Shown: positions 7,980-22,018 of the stretch, piece after piece
Position numbering within the stretch: the stretch's first letter is position 1
Layout of the letters: every line of letters starts with the position of its first letter
Origin: Escherichia coli
Lineage (GTDB): Bacteria; Pseudomonadota; Gammaproteobacteria; Enterobacterales; Enterobacteriaceae
Assembly: GCF_024502345.1 (NCBI RefSeq)
Contig: NZ_JALDNN010000001.1
Length of the DNA: 64,000 nt
Reading direction: 5' to 3' (one strand)
Program-made: the position numbers and the translations under genes
Notes under the pieces: generated by a model
What the model was told of the DNA's origin: nothing
Database searches by the model: none
Seen by the model: only the letters and a program-made list of their open reading frames with translations

Positions 7980-9041
7980 TTACAGCGCAATACGAATCAC
8001 ATCGTCCGGCTGGGTAGCTTCCTGCTGTTTAGTGGATTTTTGTTTCACACTGACATACAGCGTTTTGCCATCGGCAGACAGCGCCAGGCTGTTCGGATGA
8101 GTCGGCGTATCGAACGTTTTCACCACTTTATAGCTTTTCGCGTCAATCACACTGACTTTACCTGCCTGACGATGCGTTACGTAGGCTTCATTACGCGCTG
8201 GGTTAAACAGCACAGCCAGTGATTCCGGTGCCGCAACCTTCGCCAGAATATTGCCATTACGGGTATCGACCACTAACACTTCTGCCGCTTTAGAATCGGT
8301 GATAAATGCACGCTGCCTGGCGGTATCAAGGCTAATGTTGATAAAGAAGTGCTCTTTGCCGTCATCCAGCAGCTTTTTACGGCTGAGGATTTTATTGTCG
8401 GCGGTGTCGATGGTAATCAATTCGCCGTCAGCGTTAGTGGTGTAAAGACGTTTGCCTTTGCTATCCAGCGCCAGACCAGTACTCATTTTACCGGTGTTCT
8501 GGATGGCGGTTTTCAGTTTGATATTCTCGCCATCAACGACCCAAATCACGCTCTCTTTACCAATACCACTGATGTAAACGGTGTTCGTGGCATCATCAGC
8601 TACCAGCTCACGCGGTTGCAGCGGGCGCACTTCTTCCGTGCGCTTACGATCATCCAGCACCAGACGGCCTTTCACCTCGCCAGTTTTGGCATCTATCGCC
8701 GTGACCGCGCTGTTTACGGTGTTACCAAACCACAACGTCTGAGTCGTGTTATTGATGGTGGCACCAAACGGCTTGAGATCGTTATGGATCGCCTGCGTCA
8801 CTTCCAGAGTGACCGGATCAAGACGATAAACCACGCCACCTTTATCCAGTTTGCGGCTTTGCGAAGTGGCGAGCCACAGTGCGTTTTCTTGCTGGCTATA
8901 AGCCATTTCGTAGGCACCTTTACCTACCGCTTTACGCAGCATTTCTTCTGCGGCCTGCGTACTGAATGATGAAGCAACAAGCAATGAACCTAACAGTAAT
9001 GAACCACGCAGGCGCGATGAAAACAGATGACGTAAATGCAT
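7980..9041 (-). CDS. yncE: Periplasmic beta-propeller protein YncE
   Basis: 353-aa ORF with N-terminal signal peptide; conserved position. Confidence 0.9.
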   Translation of the reverse strand: MHLRHLFSSRLRGSLLLGSLLVASSFSTQAAEEMLRKAVGKGAYEMAYSQQENALWLATSQSRKLDKGGVVYRLDPVTLEVTQAIHNDLKPFGATINNTTQTLWFGNTVNSAVTAIDAKTGEVKGRLVLDDRKRTEEVRPLQPRELVADDATNTVYISGIGKESVIWVVDGENIKLKTAIQNTGKMSTGLALDSKGKRLYTTNADGELITIDTADNKILSRKKLLDDGKEHFFINISLDTARQRAFITDSKAAEVLVVDTRNGNILAKVAAPESLAVLFNPARNEAYVTHRQAGKVSVIDAKSYKVVKTFDTPTHPNSLALSADGKTLYVSVKQKSTKQQEATQPDDVIRIAL

Positions 9042-9127
9042 GACGACTCCCTTTGATGAACCGATATTTTTGCTGCTTCACAATGCTTCGCTAAGCGTAA
9101 TCATCGTTACGCTCTTGTTATAAATGG

Positions 9128-9146
9128 GAATGGTAATCATTATTTT
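9128..9146. promoter_or_regulatory. Putative Fur box in the yncE-yncD divergent promoter region
   Basis: GAATGGTAATCATTATTTT resembles the Fur consensus GATAATGATAATCATTATC; sits between a divergent TonB-dependent receptor gene and yncE. Confidence 0.35.
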
Positions 9147-9282
9147 CTCAAATGTGGAGCATTTCTTGCCGTTACGACTACAATTTTCTCAATTACTTAA
9201 CGTATTGTGCCGTTTCATTTTCCATAAATTTACAATTTCATTACCATGACGGCGTTTTCCCATTCTTAACCTGGCTTTTTTC

Positions 9283-11385
9283 ATGAAGATTTTTTCCGTC
9301 CGACAGACCGTTTTGCCCGCACTGCTTGTCCTTTCCCCCGTTGTTTTTGCCGCTGATGAACAGACCATGATTGTCAGTGCCGCGCCGCAGGTGGTTTCAG
9401 AACTGGATACCCCTGCAGCAGTAAGCGTGGTGGATGGCGAGGAGATGCGCCTGGCAACACCGCGCATTAACTTGTCCGAATCACTGACCGGCGTGCCTGG
9501 TTTGCAGGTACAAAACCGGCAGAACTATGCGCAAGATTTACAGCTGTCGATTCGCGGATTTGGCTCCCGTTCCACTTACGGAATTCGCGGTATTCGCCTG
9601 TATGTGGACGGTATTCCCGCCACCATGCCCGACGGGCAAGGGCAAACATCCAACATCGATTTAAGCAGTGTGCAAAATGTGGAAGTGCTGCGTGGCCCCT
9701 TCTCTGCCCTGTATGGCAACGCGTCTGGCGGTGTAATGAATGTCACCACCCAGACCGGACAACAGCCACCAACCATTGAAGCCAGTAGTTACTACGGCAG
9801 TTTTGGCAGCTGGCGCTATGGGCTGAAAGCAACGGGCGCAACGGGAGACGGCACACAGCCCGGCGATGTCGATTACACTGTCTCAACCACGCGTTTTACG
9901 ACACACGGCTATCGTGACCATAGTGGCGCACAGAAAAATTTAGCCAATGCCAAACTGGGCGTACGCATTGATGAAGCCAGCAAATTAAGCCTGATTTTCA
10001 ATAGCGTGGATATCAAAGCAGATGACCCAGGTGGGCTAACCAAAGCAGAATGGAAGGCGAATCCACAACAAGCGCCTCGTGCAGAACAGTACGACACGCG
10101 AAAAACCATCAAGCAAACTCAGGCTGGGTTGCGCTATGAACGTAGCCTGAGTTCGCGGGATGATATGAGTATGATGATGTATGCCGGAGAGCGAGAAACG
10201 ACCCAGTACCAGTCAATACCCATGGCACCACAACTTAACCCGTCACATGCGGGCGGCGTGATTACCCTGCAACGCCATTACCAGGGAATAGACAGCCGCT
10301 GGACACACCGTGGTGAACTGGGCGTTCCGGTCACGTTCACTACCGGCCTGAACTACGAAAACATGAGTGAAAACCGCAAGGGCTACAATAACTTCCGCCT
10401 GAATAGCGGCATGCCGGAGTACGGGCAAAAAGGTGAGTTGCGTCGCGACGAACGCAATCTGATGTGGAACATCGATCCCTATTTACAGACGCAGTGGCAG
10501 CTGAGCGAAAAACTGTCGCTGGATGCTGGCGTGCGCTACAGCTCCGTGTGGTTTGATTCCAACGATTATTACGTTACTCCGGGTAACGGCGATGACAGCG
10601 GTGATGCCAGTTATCACAAATGGCTACCTGCCGGTTCGTTAAAATATGCAATGACCGATGCCTGGAATATCTATCTGGCAGCCGGGCGTGGTTTTGAAAC
10701 GCCGACGATTAATGAGCTGTCTTATCGTGCTGATGGGCAAAGCGGTATGAACTTTGGTTTAAAACCATCCACCAACGATACAATTGAGATCGGCAGTAAA
10801 ACGCGTATTGGTGATGGGCTGCTTAGTCTCGCATTGTTTCAGACCGACACCGATGATGAAATTGTTGTCGATAGCAGTAGCGGTGGGCGTACGACTTACA
10901 AAAATGCCGGAAAGACCCGTCGTCAAGGCGCTGAACTGGCATGGGATCAACGTTTCGCGGGAGATTTTCGCGTAAACGCGTCCTGGACCTGGCTTGATGC
11001 GACCTATCGCAGCAATGTTTGCAACGAACAGGATTGTAACGGTAATCGGATGCCAGGGATCGCCCGTAATATGGGCTTTGCGTCGATAGGTTATGTACCG
11101 GAAGATGGTTGGTATGCAGGCACGGAAGCGCGTTATATGGGCGATATTATGGCAGATGATGAAAATACGGCAAAAGCGCCGTCTTATACTCTCGTCGGCT
11201 TATTCACCGGGTATAAATACAATTACCACAATTTAACTGTGGATTTATTTGGTCGTGTCGATAATTTATTCGATAAAGAATACGTTGGTTCTGTCATTGT
11301 CAATGAGTCAAACGGGCGATATTACGAACCTGCGCCCGGACGAAATTATGGTGTCGGCATGAATATTGCGTGGAGATTTGAGTAA
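9283..11385 (+). CDS. yncD: TonB-dependent outer membrane receptor
   Basis: 700-aa ORF with signal peptide, plug and beta-barrel features, C-terminal aromatic residue (…AWRFE). Confidence 0.9.
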   Translation: MKIFSVRQTVLPALLVLSPVVFAADEQTMIVSAAPQVVSELDTPAAVSVVDGEEMRLATPRINLSESLTGVPGLQVQNRQNYAQDLQLSIRGFGSRSTYGIRGIRLYVDGIPATMPDGQGQTSNIDLSSVQNVEVLRGPFSALYGNASGGVMNVTTQTGQQPPTIEASSYYGSFGSWRYGLKATGATGDGTQPGDVDYTVSTTRFTTHGYRDHSGAQKNLANAKLGVRIDEASKLSLIFNSVDIKADDPGGLTKAEWKANPQQAPRAEQYDTRKTIKQTQAGLRYERSLSSRDDMSMMMYAGERETTQYQSIPMAPQLNPSHAGGVITLQRHYQGIDSRWTHRGELGVPVTFTTGLNYENMSENRKGYNNFRLNSGMPEYGQKGELRRDERNLMWNIDPYLQTQWQLSEKLSLDAGVRYSSVWFDSNDYYVTPGNGDDSGDASYHKWLPAGSLKYAMTDAWNIYLAAGRGFETPTINELSYRADGQSGMNFGLKPSTNDTIEIGSKTRIGDGLLSLALFQTDTDDEIVVDSSSGGRTTYKNAGKTRRQGAELAWDQRFAGDFRVNASWTWLDATYRSNVCNEQDCNGNRMPGIARNMGFASIGYVPEDGWYAGTEARYMGDIMADDENTAKAPSYTLVGLFTGYKYNYHNLTVDLFGRVDNLFDKEYVGSVIVNESNGRYYEPAPGRNYGVGMNIAWRFE

Positions 11386-11393
11386 TTACCTTG

Positions 11394-11420
11394 AGGCCCG
11401 GTATTTGCCGGGCATTTACT
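11394..11420. terminator. Hairpin between convergent yncD and mcbR
   Basis: GCCCGG/CCGGGC stem with 6-nt loop followed by ATTT. Confidence 0.4.
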
Positions 11421-12086
11421 TTAACGATTGTATTGCTGGTATAAAATAGCAATATTTTGTTGCATAATTTCAGCAAGACAATGTCTGCATCCCTCTTTGT
11501 CTTTTGCTTTTAACGCAGCGAGTAACAGATGATAGTTTTCTATATGCTCCCGTAATTCCGCTGGATTAATCGCTTCATAGAGATAATGTAAACCAGGCCC
11601 CATCCTGACCCACAGTTGCTCAATCATCTCACACAGGATGGGCATATTCGAGCGATGATAAATCGCTAAGCGAAATAGCCTGTTTACATTAATGATTTGT
11701 TCCATGTCGCCCTTTTCTTGCGCCTGCTGTAATTTCTCGAGCAATTCCTGGAGTTCCGCCAGGTCTGGCGGGGTGAGGTTTTCAACAGCCAGAGTAACTG
11801 CCATTAATTCCAGTTCGTAGCGGATCCGATTGATTTCGTCTAATTGACGTTTCCCCACTTCCGGAACTGTAAATGCTTGCGCTGGTGCGACAGAAAGCGC
11901 ATTCACCGAAACCAGACGTAATAATGCTTCACGCACAGGTGTAAAACTCATACCTAATTGCTCCGCCAGATTTTTAGTAATCAGGCGTGCGCCAGGTTTT
12001 AGTGCGCCAATACTAAGCTGATGTTTCAGGTCGTTCTCAACCTGCAGAGTCAAACTGACATGTTTCATTTTTTCCGTTCCAGGCAT
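11421..12086 (-). CDS. mcbR: GntR-family transcriptional regulator McbR (YncC)
   Basis: ORF with N-terminal HTH (GntR-like) and FCD-like C-terminus; start taken at MPGTEK (221 aa). Confidence 0.8.
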   Translation of the reverse strand: MPGTEKMKHVSLTLQVENDLKHQLSIGALKPGARLITKNLAEQLGMSFTPVREALLRLVSVNALSVAPAQAFTVPEVGKRQLDEINRIRYELELMAVTLAVENLTPPDLAELQELLEKLQQAQEKGDMEQIINVNRLFRLAIYHRSNMPILCEMIEQLWVRMGPGLHYLYEAINPAELREHIENYHLLLAALKAKDKEGCRHCLAEIMQQNIAILYQQYNR

Positions 12087-12283
12087 TTTAATTCCTTCGC
12101 GTGTTTTCTGTCCAACCCTGCCTGCATGGCAGAAGGAATTCACCTGGTGTATTAAAGTGAATAATCATAAACCACTCACCTTTGTTGTTATTAACAGCAG
12201 AACAATGATGTGGTTAGTTAATTAAAGCTGAAAATAAGCTTTTTGCCTGGATTTTTATGGCGGCTTATGCCGCCGTTGAAACT

Positions 12284-13321
12284 TTAATCATCACCCGCCA
12301 CGCGGATCACCACTTTGCCGAAGTTTTTACCCTTCAGCAGGCCGATAAACGTCTGTGGCGCATTCTCTAAACCGTCAGTAATTTCTTCTCGGTAGTGGAT
12401 TTTATCCTCTTTCACCCATTGCCCCATCTCCTTCTGAAACTCATGGATGCGGTGACCATAATCCTGAGCGATAATAAACCCTTGCAAGCGAATACGTTTT
12501 TTCAGCACCGTTGCCATCAACAGGGGTAAACGATCCGGACCGGGTGGTAGCTCTGTAGCGTTATAGCTGCTCACTAAGCCACAAACGGGAATGCGCGCAG
12601 ATGTATTAAGTAATGGTAGCACTGCATCAAATACCTTACCGCCCACGTTTTCATAATAGATATCAATACCTTTTGGGCACGCTTTCGCCAGTTGTTCGGC
12701 AAAATCGTCCGCGTGGTGATCAAGGCAAACATCGAAGCCTAACACCTCGGTAGCATGGCGGCATTTTTCCGCGCCACCGGCTACCCCCACCACTCTGCAA
12801 CCTTTAAGTTTGCCGATTTGCCCCACCGTCGCCCCCACTGGTCCTGTCGCCGCAGCTACCACCAACGTTTCGCCCTCTTTAGGCTGACCGATATCCAGCA
12901 GCCCCATATAAGCGGTAAAGCCTGGCATCCCCAGCACACCCAGCGACCACGATGGATTTTGCGGATGATCGCCAAGTTTCACCAGATCATCACCACTGGA
13001 TATGTCATAGTCCTGCCATCCACTGTAGCCCAGCACCCAGTCGCCAGGCTGATAATCAGGATGATTCGACTCCACGACACGGCTCACCGTACCGCCGACC
13101 ATCACGCCGCCAATATCAACCGGCGGTGAATAAGATGGCTCATCGCTCATACGTCCACGCATATACGGGTCCAGGGACAAATAAACTGTGCGCAGTAACA
13201 CCTGTCCTTCACCCGGTGTGGCGACATCATCTTCTTCAAGACGGAAATTCTCCGGAACCGGTGCGCCATGCGGACGCGAGGCCAGAACCCAACGTCGATT
13301 ACGCTGCTTTTGTTGCCCCAT
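12284..13321 (-). CDS. curA: NADPH-dependent curcumin/dihydrocurcumin reductase (MDR family)
   Basis: Medium-chain dehydrogenase/reductase fold with GxGxxG (AAATGPVGATVGQ); start taken at MGQQKQ (345 aa). Confidence 0.85.
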   Translation of the reverse strand: MGQQKQRNRRWVLASRPHGAPVPENFRLEEDDVATPGEGQVLLRTVYLSLDPYMRGRMSDEPSYSPPVDIGGVMVGGTVSRVVESNHPDYQPGDWVLGYSGWQDYDISSGDDLVKLGDHPQNPSWSLGVLGMPGFTAYMGLLDIGQPKEGETLVVAAATGPVGATVGQIGKLKGCRVVGVAGGAEKCRHATEVLGFDVCLDHHADDFAEQLAKACPKGIDIYYENVGGKVFDAVLPLLNTSARIPVCGLVSSYNATELPPGPDRLPLLMATVLKKRIRLQGFIIAQDYGHRIHEFQKEMGQWVKEDKIHYREEITDGLENAPQTFIGLLKGKNFGKVVIRVAGDD

Positions 13322-13501
13322 AATGCTCTCCTGTGCTTTTGGCATGAATCCATCAATAGTAGCAGGCTCACGGGATTGGTTTTGTTTGCAGCCGTCACAT
13401 CCCCTCTGCAACACGCAATAATTTCATCGAGGAATCCGTTGCTTCGGGCTGTTTTCGATAGTATTGATAACATCATCATCATTATTTTATTGAGGCCAGA
13501 C

Positions 13502-14020
13502 ATGTCCATCCGTTTTGCCCGCAAAGCCGACTGTGCTGCCATTGCGGAAATTTATAACCACGCCGTGTTGTATACGGCGGCTATCTGGAATGACCAAACG
13601 GTGGATGCAGATAACCGCATTGCCTGGTTTGAAGCGCGGACCATAGCAGGTTATCCGGTGCTGGTAAGTGAAGAAGATGGCGTAGTGACGGGATATGCCT
13701 CATTTGGCGACTGGCGTAGTTTCGATGGTTTTCGCCATACCGTGGAACATTCGGTTTATGTCCATCCCGATCATCAGGGCAAAGGTCTGGGGCGTAAATT
13801 GTTAAGCCGATTGATTGATGAAGCGCGGGATTGCGGGAAGCATGTCATGGTCGCCGGGATCGAATCGCAAAATCAGGCCTCGCTGCATCTGCACCAGTCG
13901 CTGGGATTTGTCGTCACCGCACAAATGCCGCAGGTGGGCACTAAATTTGGGCGCTGGCTGGATCTGACATTTATGCAGTTGCAACTCGACGAACGCACTG
14001 AACCGGACGCGATTGGATGA
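13502..14020 (+). CDS. mnaT: GNAT N-acyltransferase (methionine derivative N-acetyltransferase)
   Basis: 172-aa GNAT-like ORF from ATG 13502; the longer track ORF (13268) overlaps the curA start and is rejected. Confidence 0.85.
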   Translation: MSIRFARKADCAAIAEIYNHAVLYTAAIWNDQTVDADNRIAWFEARTIAGYPVLVSEEDGVVTGYASFGDWRSFDGFRHTVEHSVYVHPDHQGKGLGRKLLSRLIDEARDCGKHVMVAGIESQNQASLHLHQSLGFVVTAQMPQVGTKFGRWLDLTFMQLQLDERTEPDAIG

Positions 14021-14466
14021 ATCAGTCGCTCACCCTTGCCTTTTTGATTGCCGCCGGAATTGGTCTGGTAGTCCAGAACACGCTGATGGTGCGCATCACC
14101 CAGACCTCCTCTATCATTCTCATCGCCATGTTGCTGAACTCACTGGTGGGGATTGTGCTCTTTGTTTCTATTTTATGGTTTAAACAAGGTATGGCGGGGT
14201 TTGGCGAACTGGTGTCCAGCGTGCGCTGGTGGACACTTATACCTGGCTTGCTGGGATCGTTTTTTGTCTTCGCCAGTATCAGCGGATATCAGAATGTGGG
14301 AGCGGCGACAACTATTGCAGTACTGGTCGCCAGCCAGCTGATTGGCGGTCTGGTTCTGGATATCTTCCGCAGTCATGGCGTACCACTACGGGCGTTGTTC
14401 GGCCCAATTTGTGGCGCAATTTTACTTGTGGTTGGCGCCTGGTTGGTAGCCAGACGCTCATTTTAA
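14017..14466 (+). CDS. ydcZ: Inner membrane protein YdcZ (DMT-like)
   Basis: 149-aa hydrophobic ORF, 4-bp overlap with mnaT. Confidence 0.85.
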   Translation: MNQSLTLAFLIAAGIGLVVQNTLMVRITQTSSIILIAMLLNSLVGIVLFVSILWFKQGMAGFGELVSSVRWWTLIPGLLGSFFVFASISGYQNVGAATTIAVLVASQLIGGLVLDIFRSHGVPLRALFGPICGAILLVVGAWLVARRSF

Positions 14467-14700
14467 TCACAGGATGGTGCCGCCTTTGGTTAACTGTTCA
14501 TGGCGCGCTTCCATATCTTCTTTATGCTTGCGACCGTGATGAGCAATAGCGGTGCGCAAACGCTGCTGCTGGGTGTAGCGATCTTCCCGACTTAACTCCG
14601 CGTCATCGCTCAGGGCGATTAATAATTCGTTCATATGGGCAATGACGCTCTCTTCAATCGCGGCATCCACGCGCGCGATGACTTCATCCAGATGCGACAT
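14467..14700 (-). CDS. ydcY: Small protein YdcY
   Basis: 77-aa ORF, conserved position. Confidence 0.75.
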   Translation of the reverse strand: MSHLDEVIARVDAAIEESVIAHMNELLIALSDDAELSREDRYTQQQRLRTAIAHHGRKHKEDMEARHEQLTKGGTIL

Positions 14701-14785
14701 ACTTTCTCCTTAGCCACTTGTGAAATTTATCGATTCATCCAAATGATATAAGTCTGCGTGGTGCCGTCAAGCCAGTGAGTAAGAT

Positions 14786-14959
14786 TTAAAACAGTGAAAA
14801 CAACAGCGCCACCGGGAAACTCATCGGCCATGTGGCCCCCACCAGAAAGGCGCTTAAGAAACGGATGCGTTTCTTATCGTGAGAAAGAAACCAGGTGATA
14901 AGAAATGCGATTGCTGCCATAACCGCATAAAAAACAAGCATGTGTTGATAGAGAGACAT
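14786..14959 (-). CDS. ortT: Orphan membrane toxin OrtT (YdcX), GhoT-like
   Basis: 57-aa two-helix hydrophobic peptide MSLYQHMLVFYAVMAAIAFLITWFLSHDKK…. Confidence 0.75.
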   Translation of the reverse strand: MSLYQHMLVFYAVMAAIAFLITWFLSHDKKRIRFLSAFLVGATWPMSFPVALLFSLF

Positions 14960-15153
14960 GTACGGGCGTCCAGCCAGATGAATAAAACGCGCGCAAATAT
15001 GCGTCATTTTTTGACGTGCATCAAGTTTTTTCACCAGTTAGAGAAAAAATCATCAAACAGCAACTTGCCCTTATCCATCTTCAGAATGAGTATTATTGCG
15101 GATTTTCTTAACCCGTACTATACACATAGGGGCAATGATAAAAGGTGGCAAAA

Positions 15154-15249
15154 ATGAATGTTTCCAGTAGAACTGTAGTACTGATAAATGTCTTTGCTGC
15201 TGTTGGTTTGTTTACTCTTATCTCTATGAGATTTGGCTGGTTTATTTGA
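15154..15249 (+). CDS. yncL: Small membrane protein YncL (31 aa)
   Basis: ATG 15154; translates MNVSSRTVVLINVFAAVGLFTLISMRFGWFI; too short for the ORF track. Confidence 0.6.
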   Translation: MNVSSRTVVLINVFAAVGLFTLISMRFGWFI

Positions 15250-15271
15250 TGTAGTGATTTTGCACGCAGCA

Positions 15272-15306
15272 CGTACTGTCAGAGAAATCAACTCTCTGAC
15301 AGTACG
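15272..15306. terminator. 13-bp perfect-stem hairpin downstream of yncL
   Basis: CGTACTGTCAGAG-(9-nt loop)-CTCTGACAGTACG, 23 nt after yncL stop; no clear T-tract. Confidence 0.35.
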
Positions 15307-15650
15307 CAAGATCTTCTCATACTCTCCAGGTTTACAACATTATCCTTAATATTTACTTCTTTTTGCTGGCATCTACATTGAAATGAGTAGAAAACATCCC
15401 CCTACTGTCGTCTATACAAACAGCTTACTGATTCAAAGGGAATCTTGTTTTCACATTTTTCTATCATGAATACTTTATACGCGCGGGAGTCTATAAATGC
15501 TTTATACTTTCAAGGAATAACGCAAATATAAAAAGATGGCGTAAAGTATATGCATGGCAGGATGTTTGCAACCTCCTTCATGACGCTGCCCCATTGAAAT
15601 TGCAAACCCCGCCCTGGTTATCTTGCCCATTTATCATGCAAAACAGATAA

Positions 15651-16460
15651 TTATAGGCCTCTGAATACCTCAGAAAGATTGAATTTTTTATAGTCCCTCT
15701 CTTGAATATTTCCATTTGAAATCAATCGATTCATCTCTTCAACAAAATAATTTATATCATCACACTTGTTATTATCCGGAAGATCTGAGTAGTTATAATT
15801 CCACCATTTTATTCTCAACAGTTCATCAATAACATTTGAATCAAACCTAAATCTGATTATTTTTGCAGGAACTCCTGCAACTATGGCATATGGGGGCACA
15901 TCTTTGGTAACAACGGAATTGGCAGCAATAACAGCACCATCACCTATTGTGATGCCACCTTTCAATACAACATCATTTCCTATCCAGACATCATTTCCTA
16001 TAATCGGATTTTCAGGTTTTGTAATGAATGGTTTCAATGTCCAGCTACGTTCAAACTCACTCATAGCAAACTTATCAAATTCACCGTTATAAGTCATCAT
16101 GTGAGTAGTAAAACGATTCAAAGAATGATTTCCACCCATTATTTTTACATTTGATGCAATACTACAAAATCGACCTATACGTATATTCCCTGAAAAATGA
16201 CAGGTCGGAAATGAAAAAGCGCCGACACTGGAGAAATTTTTTACAGGCATTGTTGAATATTCTTCAGCAATAACATTATCTTCAATTGTTATCTTGTCAC
16301 CTTTTGAGAAAAGAAATAAATTCCTTTCTTTATACGACTTCTTCCCCTTATGATTTAAAAAGATTTTATTATCCATACAAAACTCAAAGTGTTTTTTCGT
16401 CCATCTGAAGGTAAGGGGTTTATTTTTATCTTCCGTGAATTTGTACAATTGAACTTTCAT
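15651..16460 (-). CDS. Hexapeptide-repeat (left-handed beta-helix) acetyltransferase, Vat/CatB-like xenobiotic acetyltransferase family, with N- and C-terminal extensions
   Basis: 269-aa ORF; motif …IIGNDVWIGNDVVLKGGITIGDGAVIAANSVVTKDVPPYAIVAGVPAKIIRFRF… typical of streptogramin/chloramphenicol acetyltransferases; gene and flanks are markedly AT-rich relative to neighbours. Confidence 0.75.
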   Translation of the reverse strand: MKVQLYKFTEDKNKPLTFRWTKKHFEFCMDNKIFLNHKGKKSYKERNLFLFSKGDKITIEDNVIAEEYSTMPVKNFSSVGAFSFPTCHFSGNIRIGRFCSIASNVKIMGGNHSLNRFTTHMMTYNGEFDKFAMSEFERSWTLKPFITKPENPIIGNDVWIGNDVVLKGGITIGDGAVIAANSVVTKDVPPYAIVAGVPAKIIRFRFDSNVIDELLRIKWWNYNYSDLPDNNKCDDINYFVEEMNRLISNGNIQERDYKKFNLSEVFRGL

Positions 16461-16669
16461 TGTTAATACTTCTACTTATAAAGTATTAGTTTAATAACGA
16501 TACTCTAAAGCCTTATGCTAATCAACTGTGACAGGATGAAAAATCGCCATCAAACATTTAGCCTAATTTTTACGCTAGTTATTAATGTAATCATTCTAAT
16601 ACTTAACCGCCATTAAACTCAGAACCGAAAACGATAGTGGCCGTCCTATAACAGCCACTAACATCTAAC

Positions 16670-18094
16670 TTAATGTTTAACCATGACGTGGCGGACGACG
16701 GTGTAATCCTCCAGCCCATAAAGTGACATATCCTTGCCGTAACCAGAAAGTTTCTGCCCACCGTGCGGCATTTCACTTACCAGCATGAAATGGGTATTGA
16801 CCCAGGTACAACCATATTGCAGTCGTGCGCTGACGCGATGCGCCCTGCCCACATCTTTCGTCCATACCGAAGATGCAAGTCCGTACTGGCTGTCATTCGC
16901 CCAGTTCACCACCTGTTCTTCGTTGTCGAAGAGCGTAACACTCACTACTGGACCAAATACCTCTTTTTGCACGATGGCATCGTCCTGTAATGCGCCAGCC
17001 AGCAGCGTCGGCTCATAGTAATAGCCATTACCCTTGCGCTTTTCACCGCCAGTGATCACTTTGATGTGCCCTGTCGCTTTCGCCTCTTCTACTGCCTTGC
17101 TGACGCGTTCGAGATGCGCCAGCGAGCTTAAAGGTCCAAGCTCCGTAGACTCGTCATCCGGCGCACCAGATTTTAACGTTGCCACTGCAGCACCGAGTTT
17201 TTCCACCAACGTATCGTAAATGCCTTTTTGCGCGTAGATCCGACAAGCCGCAGTACAATCCTGTCCGGCATTGTAATAGCCAAATGTACGTACACCTTCG
17301 ACCACTGCTTCAATATCCGCATCATCAAAAACAATCACTGGCGCTTTGCCACCAAGTTCCATATGAGTTCGCTTAATGGACGGCGCGGTATGGCTGATGA
17401 TGTGCTCGCCGGTGGCGATAGAGCCCGTCAGCGACACCATCCGCACTTTGGGATGACCGGTCAGCGGATCGCCCACCGTTTTGCCTCTGCCAAACAGCAC
17501 ATTAATCACGCCTGCCGGGAAGATATCTTTCGCCAGCCCTGCCAACTTCAACGCGGTCAGCGGGGTAATTTCTGATGGTTTAAGCACTACGCAGTTCCCT
17601 GCCGCCAGCGCCGGAGCAAGTTTCCACGCTGCCATCATCAGCGGATAATTCCACGGTGCGATAGAAGCCACGACCCCCAACGGATCGCGACGGATCATCG
17701 AAGTATGACCTTCAAGATATTCACCTGCCGCCAGACCATTCAGACAGCGCGCCGCACCCGCGAAAAAGCGAAAAACATCGACAATCGCCGGGATTTCATC
17801 ATTGAACGCACTATGCAGCGGTTTGCCACAATTACGGGACTCCAGTTCGGCAAAAACCTGACCATTTTCTTCGATTACATCAGCCAGTTTCAGCAGACAT
17901 TCCGCACGCACTTTCGGCGTGGTTTGCCCCCATTCGGCAAATGCTGCATCTGCCGCGCGCACAGCAGCATCGACCTGCTCTGCGGATGCCTCGGCAATCT
18001 CCAGTAAAACGTCCCCCGTTGCCGGACTATAGACAGGCTGTTTTTCCCCTTCGCCGCTAACCAGTTCTCCGTTAATCAGTAACTTATGTTGCAT
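16670..18094 (-). CDS. patD: Gamma-aminobutyraldehyde dehydrogenase
   Basis: 474-aa aldehyde dehydrogenase ORF; conserved position. Confidence 0.9.
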
Positions 18095-18115
18095 AGCATA
18101 TTCCTGTATCAGTGG

Positions 18116-18910
18116 TTATTGACCATTGTCGCCTTCGCGGGTTAGCCACCAGGCCCCCAGGATCGGCAAGGTTGTTACCAACATAACCAGCAGTGCCACC
18201 ACGTTAGTTACCGGTACATCACGCGGTCGCCCAAGCTGATTGAGCAACCACAACGGTAACGTTCGTTCATGACCTGCCGTAAAGGTCGTAACGATGATTT
18301 CATCGAACGACAAGGCAAACGCCAGCATTCCTCCTGCCAGTAACGCCGAACTGAGATTCGGCAACACTACGTAGCGGAAGGTTTGCCAGCCATTGGCCCC
18401 AAGATCCATTGACGCCTCAACCAGACTCCATGAGGTGCGGCGAAAACGGGCGATGACATTGTTAAACACCACAACTACACAAAAAGTCGCATGACCGACC
18501 ACGATGGTGAAAAATCCCGGCTCCAGATTGATGGTTTTAAAGGCGGTTAATAACGCCAGACCAGTGACAATGCCCGGCAGCGCAATGGGCAGCAGCAGTA
18601 ACAGCGAAATGGCGTTTTTGCCGAAAAAGTCTCGTCGCCACAGCGCGCCAGCTGCCAGCGTCCCTAACACCAGCGCCATTAATGTCGCCAGCGCCGCCAC
18701 TTTAAGTGACAGTGTCACGGCATCAAGAATATCACTACGCTGTGCTGCCACGCTAAACCAGCGCAGCGTCAGGCCCTGCGGTGGAAAACTAAACGCCGCA
18801 TCTTCAGTGTTAAACGCATAGGCGGCGATTATCAGGATGGGAAAATGTAGGAAAACAACGCCGCCCCAGGCCGCCAGTTTGAGGAAAAACGGTGCGCGTT
18901 CAGAGTGCAT
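18116..18910 (-). CDS. ydcV: ABC transporter permease
   Basis: 264-aa membrane ORF in four-gene ABC operon. Confidence 0.9.
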
Positions 18911-19841
18911 CGAACGCTCCCAGACGTTTCACGAACGCCAGGTACAGTGCGATGAGAACAATCGGCACCAGGGTGAATGCCGCCGCCATCGGCATATTGC
19001 CAATCGCCCCCTGCTGGGAATAAACCATATTGCCGATAAAATATCCTGGCGGGCCAACCAGCTGCGGGACGATAAAATCGCCCAGTGTGAGTGAGAAGGT
19101 AAAGATAGAGCCAGCGGCAATGCCCGGGATCGCCAGCGGCAGCACCACATAGCGAAAGGTTTGTCGTGGACGTGCGCCGAGATCAGCCGACGCCTGCAAC
19201 AATGACGGCGGCAAACGCTCAAGCGCCGCCTGCACGGGCAGGATCATGAACGGCAGCCAGATATAGAGAAACACCAGAAAGCGCCCCAGCCCGGAAGTTG
19301 ACAGCGTATTGCCGCCCACCGCAGGTAATGTAAGGAACGCAGTCAGCAGTGGTTCCAGCCCAAGATGTTGTAAAAACCACTGAGCCACGCCATCTTTTGC
19401 CAGCAATAACGTCCAGGCATAGGCTTTAACAATGTAGCTCGCCCACATCGGCAACATTACCGCAATATAAAAAAACGCTTTCATTTTCCCGCTGGTATAG
19501 CGCGCCATATACCACGCCATTGGAAAAGCCAGAATGGCGCTGGCGATAGTGACTGCCACAGCCATAGTCAGCGTGCGGAGAATGATGTCGTAATTTGCCG
19601 GATTAAACAGCGCACGGATGTTCGCCAGCGTCCGTTCCGGCGTTACCGACATGGTGAAATCGTCAAAGGTATAAAAGCCCTGCCATAACAGCGTTAGCAG
19701 CGAGCCGAAATAGACAATGCCAAACCACATTAGCGGGCCAAGCAGCAGCAAAAACAGCCCCAGCCCCGGATTCCGCCAGAAGAAACCGGACACCTTACCC
19801 AGACCTGGACGTGAAGGTGATTGCAATACGTTCATCGCCAT
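18900..19841 (-). CDS. ydcU: ABC transporter permease
   Basis: 313-aa membrane ORF overlapping ydcV. Confidence 0.9.
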
Positions 19842-20855
19842 TCACCTCTCCTCAACCAGCGGCACCATCACATCACGCGACCAGGAAACCATCACCTGTT
19901 GTCCGGGCGTGAGCGTGGCAGGCAGTTCTTCGCCTGTCATATTGGCCTGACTCACAAGCAGTTTTTCACCGCCGTTCAATTTCAGTTCAAAACGAGTTGC
20001 CGCGCCCTGATATTGCACCGCCTGGATCGTGCCATTGGCCTGCAGTTCACCAGAGGTGTTGAGGCGGATATGTTCCGGTCGCAGGGCGAAGCTTCCCGTC
20101 ATACCACAAAGTTTCTCTGCCATCAGTCCATCAAAAACATTCGATGTACCAACGAACCCGGCAACAAACGGCGTGCGCGGGCGCATATAGAGATCGCGCG
20201 GGGAATCGACCTGCTCAATGCGTCCATTATTGAAAACCGCCACACGATCGGACATCGATAATGCCTCGCCCTGATCGTGGGTGACGAAGATAAAAGTGAT
20301 GCCGAGAGACTGTTGCAGCTTTTTCAGCTCAAGCTGCATTTGTTCTCGCAATTTGAGATCCAGTGCGCCGAGCGGTTCATCCAACAGCAATACGCGCGGT
20401 TCGTTCACCAGAGCTCTGGCAATGGCGACTCGCTGACGTTGACCACCAGAAAGTTGTGACGGTTTGCGTTGCTGAACAAAACCCAGCGCCACTTTCTCCA
20501 GCGCCTCTTGCGCCATTGCGTGCCGCTGCTTTTTATTCACGCCTTTGACCATCAGCCCGTAGGCGACGTTGTCAAGAATCGACATATGCGGAAATAGCGC
20601 GTAGTCCTGGAAGACAGTATTCACGTCCCGCTCCCACGGTGGCAGATTGCTGGCGGGTTTACCAAAGATAGAGATAGCCCCGCCGGAAAGCTGTTCGAAG
20701 CCAGCAATCAGGCGCAGGCAGGTGGTTTTGCCGGAGCCGGACGGCCCCAGCATAGAGAAGAACTCACCATCTTTTATCGCAATACTGACGCCATCTACTG
20801 CGCGCACGTCACCGTACAACCGCGAGACGTTGTCAAACTCCACTGCGTACGTCAT
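19842..20855 (-). CDS. ydcT: ABC transporter ATP-binding protein
   Basis: Walker A GPSGSGKT, ABC signature LSGGQRQR, Walker B LLLDEP. Confidence 0.9.
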   Translation of the reverse strand: MTYAVEFDNVSRLYGDVRAVDGVSIAIKDGEFFSMLGPSGSGKTTCLRLIAGFEQLSGGAISIFGKPASNLPPWERDVNTVFQDYALFPHMSILDNVAYGLMVKGVNKKQRHAMAQEALEKVALGFVQQRKPSQLSGGQRQRVAIARALVNEPRVLLLDEPLGALDLKLREQMQLELKKLQQSLGITFIFVTHDQGEALSMSDRVAVFNNGRIEQVDSPRDLYMRPRTPFVAGFVGTSNVFDGLMAEKLCGMTGSFALRPEHIRLNTSGELQANGTIQAVQYQGAATRFELKLNGGEKLLVSQANMTGEELPATLTPGQQVMVSWSRDVMVPLVEER

Positions 20856-20872
20856 AAAGCACCCCAGCGAAG

Positions 20873-22018
20873 TTAGCGACCGCCCATAATGGCAATGTAA
20901 TCCTGCGTCCAGCGACTGTAGGGAACAAACTTGCCCCCTTCTGCTATAGGCGTTTTCCAGAAGGCTATTTTATCGAAATAGTTAAAACCGTTTGTTTCAC
21001 ACCCTTTCTCGCCTAATAACGAACTGGCTTTACACCCTTCCGGCACGACTGGTAACGAGCCAAACCAGGCCGCCACATCGCCCTGCACTTTTGGCGTTAA
21101 TGACCAGTTCATCCATTTGTAGGCGCAAACCGGATGTTTCGCTTCGCTATGTAGCATGGTGGTGTCAGCCCAACCGGTAACGCCCTCTTTCGGAAATACG
21201 GTAGCGACAGGCTGGCCTTCGGCTTTCAGGGCGTTGGCCTGATAGGGCCAGGCACTGGAAGCAACCACACCCTCGTTTTTGAAATCGCTCATTTGCACGG
21301 TAGTGTCATGCCAGTAGCGATGGATCAAACTATGTTGATCACGCAGCACTTTCAGCACCGCCTGGTACTGTTCTTCGGTGAGTTGATACGGATCGCTGAT
21401 GCCCAACTGCGGCTGAGTGGCTTTAACGAACAACGCAGCGTCCGCAATGTAGATAGGGCCATCATAAGCCTGGACGCGGCCTTTATTGCTCTTGCCGTCC
21501 GGCAGATTTTGCTCAACAAAAACCACTTGCCAGCTATCCGGCGGCGTCGGGAAGGTTTTAGTGTTGTACATCAGCAGGTTCGGCCCCCATTGGTAAGGTG
21601 TACCGTAAACTTTGCCGCCAACGTTAAACCAGTCGCCTTTAACCACGCGCGGATCGAGCGTTTTCCAGTTGGTAATCAAGGCGGTATTAATCGGCTGCAC
21701 GCGTTTACCCATAATCAAACGCAGCGAGGCATCGCCGGATGCCGTAACCAGATCGTAACCCCCTTTGGTCATCAGACTGACCATTTCATCGGAAGTCGCG
21801 GCGGTTTTAACATTCACCGCGCAGCCTGTCTCTTTTTCGAATTGCGTTACCCAGTCGTATTGTTTATCAGTTTGTCCGCGTTCGATATATCCCGGCCAGG
21901 CGATAATATCCAGTCGCCCTTCCGGTTTATCTAAATTGGTAGGCGGTTCGGCGGCGTGAGCGGTCATTATTGTCATGCTGAGCGCACACAGGCTGCTGCG
22001 GGCAAATGTCTTGCTCAT
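20873..22018 (-). CDS. ydcS: Periplasmic polyamine-type substrate-binding protein
   Basis: 381-aa ORF with signal peptide; first gene of the ydcSTUV operon. Confidence 0.9.
   Translation of the reverse strand: MSKTFARSSLCALSMTIMTAHAAEPPTNLDKPEGRLDIIAWPGYIERGQTDKQYDWVTQFEKETGCAVNVKTAATSDEMVSLMTKGGYDLVTASGDASLRLIMGKRVQPINTALITNWKTLDPRVVKGDWFNVGGKVYGTPYQWGPNLLMYNTKTFPTPPDSWQVVFVEQNLPDGKSNKGRVQAYDGPIYIADAALFVKATQPQLGISDPYQLTEEQYQAVLKVLRDQHSLIHRYWHDTTVQMSDFKNEGVVASSAWPYQANALKAEGQPVATVFPKEGVTGWADTTMLHSEAKHPVCAYKWMNWSLTPKVQGDVAAWFGSLPVVPEGCKASSLLGEKGCETNGFNYFDKIAFWKTPIAEGGKFVPYSRWTQDYIAIMGGR

Follow-up and report, generated by a model that had tools for sequence, protein, structure and literature searches.

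[quoted passage not shown] OrtT was not neutralised by YdcY, by GhoS, by the flanking RNAs or by a genomic library, and the library that was screened for an antitoxin had about 3-fold coverage and yielded none (PMC4344625). The protein shares the PF10753 domain with GhoT of the type V GhoT/GhoS toxin–antitoxin system, but has no gene for a GhoS-type antitoxin beside it. YncL, encoded next to ortT, is a stress-induced small membrane protein that depolarises the membrane (PMC12542507); it is an in vivo substrate of RseP (PMC10470546), and its mRNA is targeted by RprA. In K-12 MG1655 the transcripts of yncL and patD have been reported to overlap as a convergent excludon (ExcludonFinder, PMC12288877).

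The DNA analysed here, a window of 64 kb, carries this region (mnaT–ydcZ–ydcY–ortT–yncL–patD) in its E. coli form at about 14.4–18.1 kb. The ortT/yncL locus is ordinary, well known in E. coli and annotated before, and what the interval contains is the usual enterobacterial ortT–yncL module, in which the genes of two small membrane-depolarising proteins diverge from a common 194-bp control region. The explanation of the whole that we favour, with a probability of roughly 0.8, is that this module, with a stem-loop 3′ of yncL, lies next to a separate, single and old insertion of an islet at the patD stop codon. The locus is of small significance, since its genes have been annotated and in part characterised, its conserved 3′ stem-loop is of an ordinary kind and the accessory gene that the islet amounts to is a common one. 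When positions 9000–21000 were compared with 5,426 complete E. coli genomes, the best identity to any of them was 98.9% over the 12 kb; the DNA may derive from Shigella or from an E. coli lineage that this set lacks. An Rfam scan of positions 13000–18500 at E ≤ 1 gave zero RNA family matches.

The toxin encoded in the window showed no difference from that of K-12. ortT occupies positions 14786–14959 on the minus strand, where its frame was found intact, and encodes a GhoT/OrtT-family membrane toxin of 57 aa that is 100% identical to K-12 OrtT (WP_000061178). The product scored 96.9 bits against a cutoff of 22.1 with Pfam PF10753 (Toxin_GhoT_OrtT; E 8e-28), residues 4–57 covering model positions 1–55 of 55 and hence its full length, and its hydropathy profile has two hydrophobic stretches with HDKKRIR between them, the layout of the family being two helices and a short basic loop. 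The toxin call of an earlier note on this DNA, made from its letters alone, was therefore correct, as was its statement that no cognate antitoxin gene lies nearby: the neighbours of ortT are ydcY and yncL only, no ghoS-like gene was found beside it, and the published antitoxin tests were negative (PMC4344625). The orphan status had already been shown by experiment, and the absence of an adjacent antitoxin gene holds here as well. An 82-aa ORF starting at an upstream GTG found no support as the ortT product, because indels upstream of ortT break this frame in other genera. The gene downstream, ydcY (14467..14700, minus strand), encodes a DUF2526 protein of 77 aa (Pfam PF10735, E 1e-46) that is 100% identical to K-12 YdcY; it lies 85 bp from ortT on the same strand, and this gap and the 194 bp upstream of ortT equal the published ones.

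On the other side lies yncL (15154–15249, plus strand), which, as the earlier note had stated, encodes a protein of 31 aa and is divergent from ortT, the two start codons being 194 bp apart as published for K-12. The product, WP_001303494, is a stress-response membrane protein with a single hydrophobic helix, in keeping with the YncL/YohP class of stress-induced small membrane proteins (Hemm et al., 2008/2010; PMC12542507), and it satisfied the NCBIfam equivalog NF000537 with 72.5 bits against a cutoff of 35, the match covering residues 1–30 of 30 model positions. The only change from K-12 YncL is F14V, the more frequent allele in the other E. coli loci that were fetched.

Beyond yncL the window departs from K-12, but not where composition suggests. 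The earlier note had the low-GC islet start immediately beyond the hairpin that follows yncL (15272–15306). Base-level comparison with islet-free strains moved this junction to 15356: homology to islet-free E. coli such as K-12 is unbroken to 15355, 49 bp beyond the hairpin, and it stops there in all islet-free genomes. The native DNA comprising the ortT–yncL intergenic region and yncL (14960–15355) is itself only 38% GC, which is why composition put the border at the hairpin; GC content is thus wrong by about 50 bp as to the border, which is in truth set by a 20-bp repeat at the patD stop codon. The unique inserted DNA (15356–16668, minus strand; 1,313 bp, GC 0.34) is missing in K-12 and in about 78% of E. 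coli. In islet-free strains the junction coincides with the stop codon of patD (ydcW), which in the window occupies 16670..18094 on the minus strand and encodes a gamma-aminobutyraldehyde dehydrogenase of 474 aa (RefSeq annotation of matching loci), 98.5% identical to K-12 PatD. The stop codons of yncL and patD are 96 bp apart in K-12, with the hairpin inside that gap, and 1,420 bp apart in the window.

Both ends of the inserted DNA are marked by this repeat. The left copy, AACATTATCCTTAATATTTA (15336–15355), adjoins the original intergenic DNA and contains a remnant of the end of patD, its last codons and stop; the right copy, AACATCTAACTTAATGTTTA (16660–16679), overlaps the real patD stop codon (16670–16672). 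The copies agree at 15 of 20 positions, or at 10 of 11 if the repeat is taken as 11 bp long. Because a 16/20 internal match is also present in this AT-rich DNA, the 15/20 agreement was checked against chance by a positional test, in which only about 3e-6 of position pairs in the same DNA matched as well. The repeat is therefore better than chance and was taken to be part of the insertion event. Its mismatches fall in clusters, which is what hybrid att sites would show and a fresh duplication would not.

The islet holds a single gene (15651..16460, minus strand), which is also its only ORF of at least 100 aa. The product, of 269 aa, is a hexapeptide-repeat xenobiotic acetyltransferase (Pfam Hexapep, E 6e-14; RefSeq 'CatB-related O-acetyltransferase'). 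Like the streptogramin A acetyltransferase Vat(D) (1khr), CatB and ApmA, it has a left-handed beta-helix hexapeptide domain, but differs from the Vat/CatB enzymes by an additional N-terminal stretch of about 55 aa. Its best NCBIfam matches were Vat, at 126.8 bits (NF000311; cutoff 300), and CatB, at 107.3 bits (NF000490; cutoff 350), with 84 for ApmA (cutoff 550), and since its scores fall far below the Vat and CatB cutoffs the enzyme can be called only 'CatB-related'. The nearest solved structure was VatD 1khr (E 5e-30, aligned over VatD residues 28–192), and the catalytic His is aligned, an NH of the islet enzyme standing opposite that of VatD in GANHRMDG. A chromosomal Vat/CatB-like acetyltransferase is found in many B1-type strains, pathogenic ones included, and its substrate could bear on antibiotic susceptibility.

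Several kinds of mobile DNA were considered for the islet and rejected. No recombinase or integrase gene was found within it. An IS or MITE was dismissed on finding neither a transposase among the islet ORFs nor terminal inverted repeats at the islet ends. For an integron gene cassette, the gene-distal end lacks a structured element and a core site: its 161 nt folded no better than shuffles (z = +0.76) and contain no GTTRRRY at that end, so that the islet, unlike catB integron cassettes, has no attC. A plasmid origin was likewise rejected; in PLSDB there was no plasmid homologue of the acetyltransferase above 60% identity, the lone match (96.7%) being a 4.9-Mb chromosome filed as a plasmid. 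Homologues of 70–79% identity were seen in Citrobacter sp., C. freundii, a Raoultella MAG and Enterobacter sp. Ag1, each in a single-gene low-GC islet of about 1 kb at another chromosomal locus, with nucleotide homology limited to the coding region; the gene moves among Enterobacteriaceae without a visible mobility gene. The XAT islets of Citrobacter, Raoultella and Enterobacter were also considered for a common att motif, which was rejected, CTTAATRTTTA being absent there.

Within E. coli the site is essentially biallelic. The locus was present in 5,415 of the 5,426 genomes; the islet was found in 1,158, nearly all at this site (in 1,154 as one contiguous match with both flanks), about 4,242 were empty and about 15 were in other states, which puts the islet in ~21% of E. 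coli. About 70 genomes gave split or partial matches to the 2.2-kb K-12 query, and those sampled proved to be IS events in or beside the islet (IS3000, IS1). Two islet alleles occur, ~99% and ~95% identical to the window, with identical junctions. Insertion sequences have struck the islet in several E. coli strains: IS1 interrupts the acetyltransferase gene, and one strain with IS3000 has lost the DNA from the truncated acetyltransferase gene to ydcS, patD included. A 1.6-kb contig labelled as a Collinsella sp. MAG, with fragments of yncL and patD, was 99% identical to the islet; almost certainly this is DNA of E. coli that was binned by mistake with an actinobacterial MAG.

The polarity of this polymorphism could be established from other Escherichia. 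Two non-coli Escherichia lineages are empty at the site, and their flank resembles the islet-bearing haplotype (CCAGG..ACAAC, loop AACTCT, GATCTTCTC), which indicates that the islet is a derived, single insertion; it is old, and now forms a lineage-structured presence/absence polymorphism. The common empty allele of E. coli carries a 9-bp substituted patch, TACGATCTG, where islet-bearing strains and the outgroup have CCAGGTTTA-like bases (window 15326–15335). This patch is a derived state of which the integration model gives no account. The clustered change lies 10–20 bp from the junction, and an intermediate form, TCCGATCTG, was also seen among islet-free alleles.

Secondary loss of the islet through the flanking repeat was detected in three genomes, BS-04, HH45 and O157:H7 TR01. 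BS-04 and HH45 restore AACATTATCCTTAATGTTTA, the predicted target sequence. TR01 retains the islet-end bases AACATCTAACTTAATG as a deletion scar, and the crossover must therefore have fallen in the AACAT part of the repeat, so that two different crossover points of one repeat have been used. These three are rare empty sites with an islet-type flank; the patD protein of TR01 shares its accession with the islet-bearing strain GDSC2227PM but not with O157 F7349, which has the common empty allele. That such deletions do happen could be turned into the opposite polarity, with an islet already present in the ancestor of E. coli and a common islet-free state produced by deletion between the flanking repeats, and the islet alleles, which differ by ~5% and so more than the flanks do, suggest considerable age. 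This reading is nevertheless unlikely, as the loci of non-coli Escherichia, Salmonella and C. amalonaticus are empty, the representatives of the other Escherichia species yielded no XAT relative, and the common empty allele, with its 9-bp patch, is unlike the product expected of a repeat deletion.

The one-gene cassette of 1,313 bp was inserted once, long ago, at the patD stop codon and not at the hairpin. One reciprocal crossover within CTTAAT, between the chromosomal site AACATTATCCTTAATGTTTA and a similar element site, AACATCTAACTTAATATTTA, would yield the mismatch pattern of the 20-bp repeats, and would amount to Campbell-type integration of a donor in circular or tandem form; the joint of an excised circle would then read ...TAAATATTAAG joined directly to TTAGATGTT.... 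The islet is lost now and then by recombination between the flanking repeats. Like the attL and attR of a Campbell-type integration, the direct repeats that flank the islet each seem to combine one arm from the chromosome with one from the element, and loss by repeat recombination is likewise shared, but the islet has no integrase. A long target duplication from a staggered cut, followed by clustered mutation, would be a less parsimonious source of the repeats, which differ from the target-site duplication of a transposon in being imperfect and, at 20 bp, longer than typical. A dif/XerCD-like junction was rejected after comparison by eye with the E. coli dif sequence, the XerD-like arm matching at 7/11 and the XerC-like arm at 4/11.

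A more ambitious version sets two separate proposals side by side: that the islet is a minimal integrase-less cassette which moves via a 20-bp att-like site with a recombinase supplied in trans, and that yncL and ortT constitute a conserved membrane-depolarisation module in which OrtT is modulated by YncL or by an FNR-bound control region. We hold this version to be quite unlikely.

The earlier note had also raised the possibility that the hairpin behind yncL is a recombination hotspot or an insulating terminator. The hairpin is real and lies where it was placed, starting 22 nt past the yncL stop codon on the plus strand, and its stem measures 14 bp and not the 13 bp given there. The two 14-nt arms (15272–15285 and 15293–15306) are 100% complementary, with 7 G–C pairs, and enclose a 7-nt loop. 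The 101-nt stretch that contains it folds at −30 kcal/mol (z = −4.5), and none of 200 shuffles folded equally well. No further copy of the arm sequence was found in the 64-kb window at up to one mismatch, and a repeated element was rejected on this ground, the locus also being single-copy in E. coli genomes.

The structural conservation of this element is established. The hairpin was found in K-12, O157, ATCC 25922, two non-coli Escherichia lineages, E. albertii and two Citrobacter species, is common to islet-free and islet-bearing E. coli, and sits about 20–26 nt past the yncL stop codon regardless of the gene beyond; in Salmonella an unrelated GC-rich hairpin takes the same place. In an alignment of seven sequences from Escherichia and Citrobacter, both sides had changed in 6 of 15 pairs and pairing held in 87.6% of cells, compared with 26–50% in controls with slid partners, the outer pairs not holding in Citrobacter. 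Such compensatory changes point to selection for base pairing, and hence to an element of the yncL transcript; together with the presence of the hairpin in islet-free strains and other species, they identify it as yncL's own 3′ stem-loop and not as a mark of insertion.

What lies beyond the hairpin varies among genera. There is nothing extra in empty E. coli, the other Escherichia lineages, Salmonella and C. amalonaticus; Citrobacter has MFS and AraC genes (in one species between yncL and patD), E. albertii an invasin-like adhesin gene in the place of patD, and Intestinirhabdus a GH25 lysozyme gene and rlhA. The E. albertii gene encodes an intimin/invasin-like protein of more than 1,180 aa with IAT_beta and Big_1 repeats and abuts the hairpin, and a second terminator-like hairpin was seen between the yncL hairpin and the adhesin gene. 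Thus, the comparison of insertion content across strains that had been proposed found a biallelic site within E. coli and a variable boundary only in the looser, cross-genus sense; it does not extend to a hotspot driven by the hairpin. The varied DNA reflects the usual tolerance of insertions in the gap between convergent genes, and gives no evidence of hairpin-driven recombination.

Long perfect palindromes can be recombinogenic, and in each of the genera examined no conserved element separates the hairpin from the variable DNA, both of which would fit a hairpin that is itself the recombination target, att-like or cruciform, and that captured the islet. The junction, however, is 30–49 bp past the stem in a separate AT-rich repeat, which largely refutes this idea. 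The hairpin is intact and equally long in the ~4,200 islet-free E. coli, a finding that the earlier note had itself expected to weaken the hotspot; only one insertion type occurs at the site within E. coli; the secondary deletions use the 20-bp repeat and do not involve the hairpin; and the compensatory changes indicate selected pairing, as for a transcript element. The hotspot proposal thus did not hold up, and a capture of the islet by the hairpin is very unlikely.

The preferred reading, of a module next to a separate insertion, leaves the relationship between the two divergent genes to be considered. Their control region contains the palindrome TTGACGTGCATCAA (15011..15024), which corresponds to the FNR-box consensus TTGAT-N4-ATCAA and overlaps the ortT −35 region. 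The palindrome (TTGAY-N4-ATCAA) is conserved in Escherichia, Salmonella, Citrobacter and Intestinirhabdus, and is a perfect TTGAT-N4-ATCAA in other Escherichia and Intestinirhabdus; it is an in vivo FNR ChIP-chip site reported in 2006 and assigned to ydcX (PMC1802558). ydcX is induced about 12-fold by NO in UPEC. Closer to yncL, a promoter-like block with a Shine–Dalgarno sequence (TTGCGG-N17-TACTATAC ... AAGGTGG; 15093..15153, plus strand) was near-invariant over six genera or lineages in the intergenic alignment, and probably serves as the yncL promoter, judging from this sequence pattern.

The complete yncL gene was not among the candidates deliberately tested as an OrtT antitoxin (PMC4344625), and YncL or its transcript might be conceived as the missing partner that modulates OrtT toxicity or expression. 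The unit of the two genes is kept in Escherichia, Salmonella, Citrobacter and Intestinirhabdus even as both outer neighbours change, and OrtT and YncL both depolarise or damage the membrane (PMC4344625, PMC12542507). Against this, the genomic library of ~3-fold coverage gave no antitoxin (PMC4344625), ortT occurs without yncL in Kosakonia and Buttiauxella, each of the two genes has its own conserved promoter-like block, and adjacency alone is weak evidence; we give such a partnership very little credence. In Kosakonia two tandem ortT paralogues were seen, with 84% and 65% identity to E. coli OrtT, and in Buttiauxella a DUF1508 gene stands in the place of yncL.

At the transcript level, the hairpin shows one of the two features of an intrinsic terminator, a stable G+C-containing stem-loop, and not the other, an adjoining U-rich tract: there is no U-tract 3′ of the stem on either strand (tails CAAGATCTTCTC on the plus and TGCTGCGTGCAA on the minus strand), and the hairpin was not among the calls of the terminator scan. 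The transcript overlap reported for patD and yncL means in addition that termination at the hairpin is incomplete. Of the proposed insulating terminator, what stands is a conserved structure that travels with yncL; the insulation does not, given the missing U-tract, the absence of a call by the scan and the reported overlap. The hairpin is neither a strong insulator nor a recombination site. Rather, it is a 3′ stem-loop that would be at best a leaky or non-canonical terminator, and its most likely role, as far as its fold and position can tell, would be to define and stabilise the 3′ end of yncL mRNA with partial, non-canonical termination. In islet-free strains it would also fall within the 3′ UTR of the convergent patD. 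That the palindrome is instead a DNA-level operator for a dimeric regulator is exceedingly improbable: its 14-bp inverted repeat is perfect and intergenic, but other species swap bases yet keep the arms complementary (T–A to G–C, T–A to A–T), which a specific protein–DNA contact would not accept, and the hairpin at the equivalent position in Salmonella is unrelated and GC-rich.

The islet brings a terminator-like structure of its own. An intrinsic-terminator-like hairpin with the U-rich tail UCGUUUUCGG (16635..16660, minus strand) lies inside the islet, 10 nt past the patD stop codon, and was called by the terminator scan (fold z = −3.9); the scan called none between the end of the acetyltransferase gene and the yncL hairpin. 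The insertion would thus give patD a new terminator of its own, and acetyltransferase–yncL would replace patD–yncL as the convergent pair. Islet-free strains share the hairpin in the 96-bp gap of the overlap reported for MG1655 (PMC12288877), whereas in the window 1.3 kb of DNA comes between patD and yncL, patD is followed by a terminator-like site of its own and yncL faces the acetyltransferase gene. We infer that the islet rewires the reported patD–yncL transcript overlap in ~21% of E. coli, which would make the two states of the site a natural allele pair for excludon effects. In the reference strain E. coli ATCC 25922, patD is annotated as frameshifted (pseudogene).
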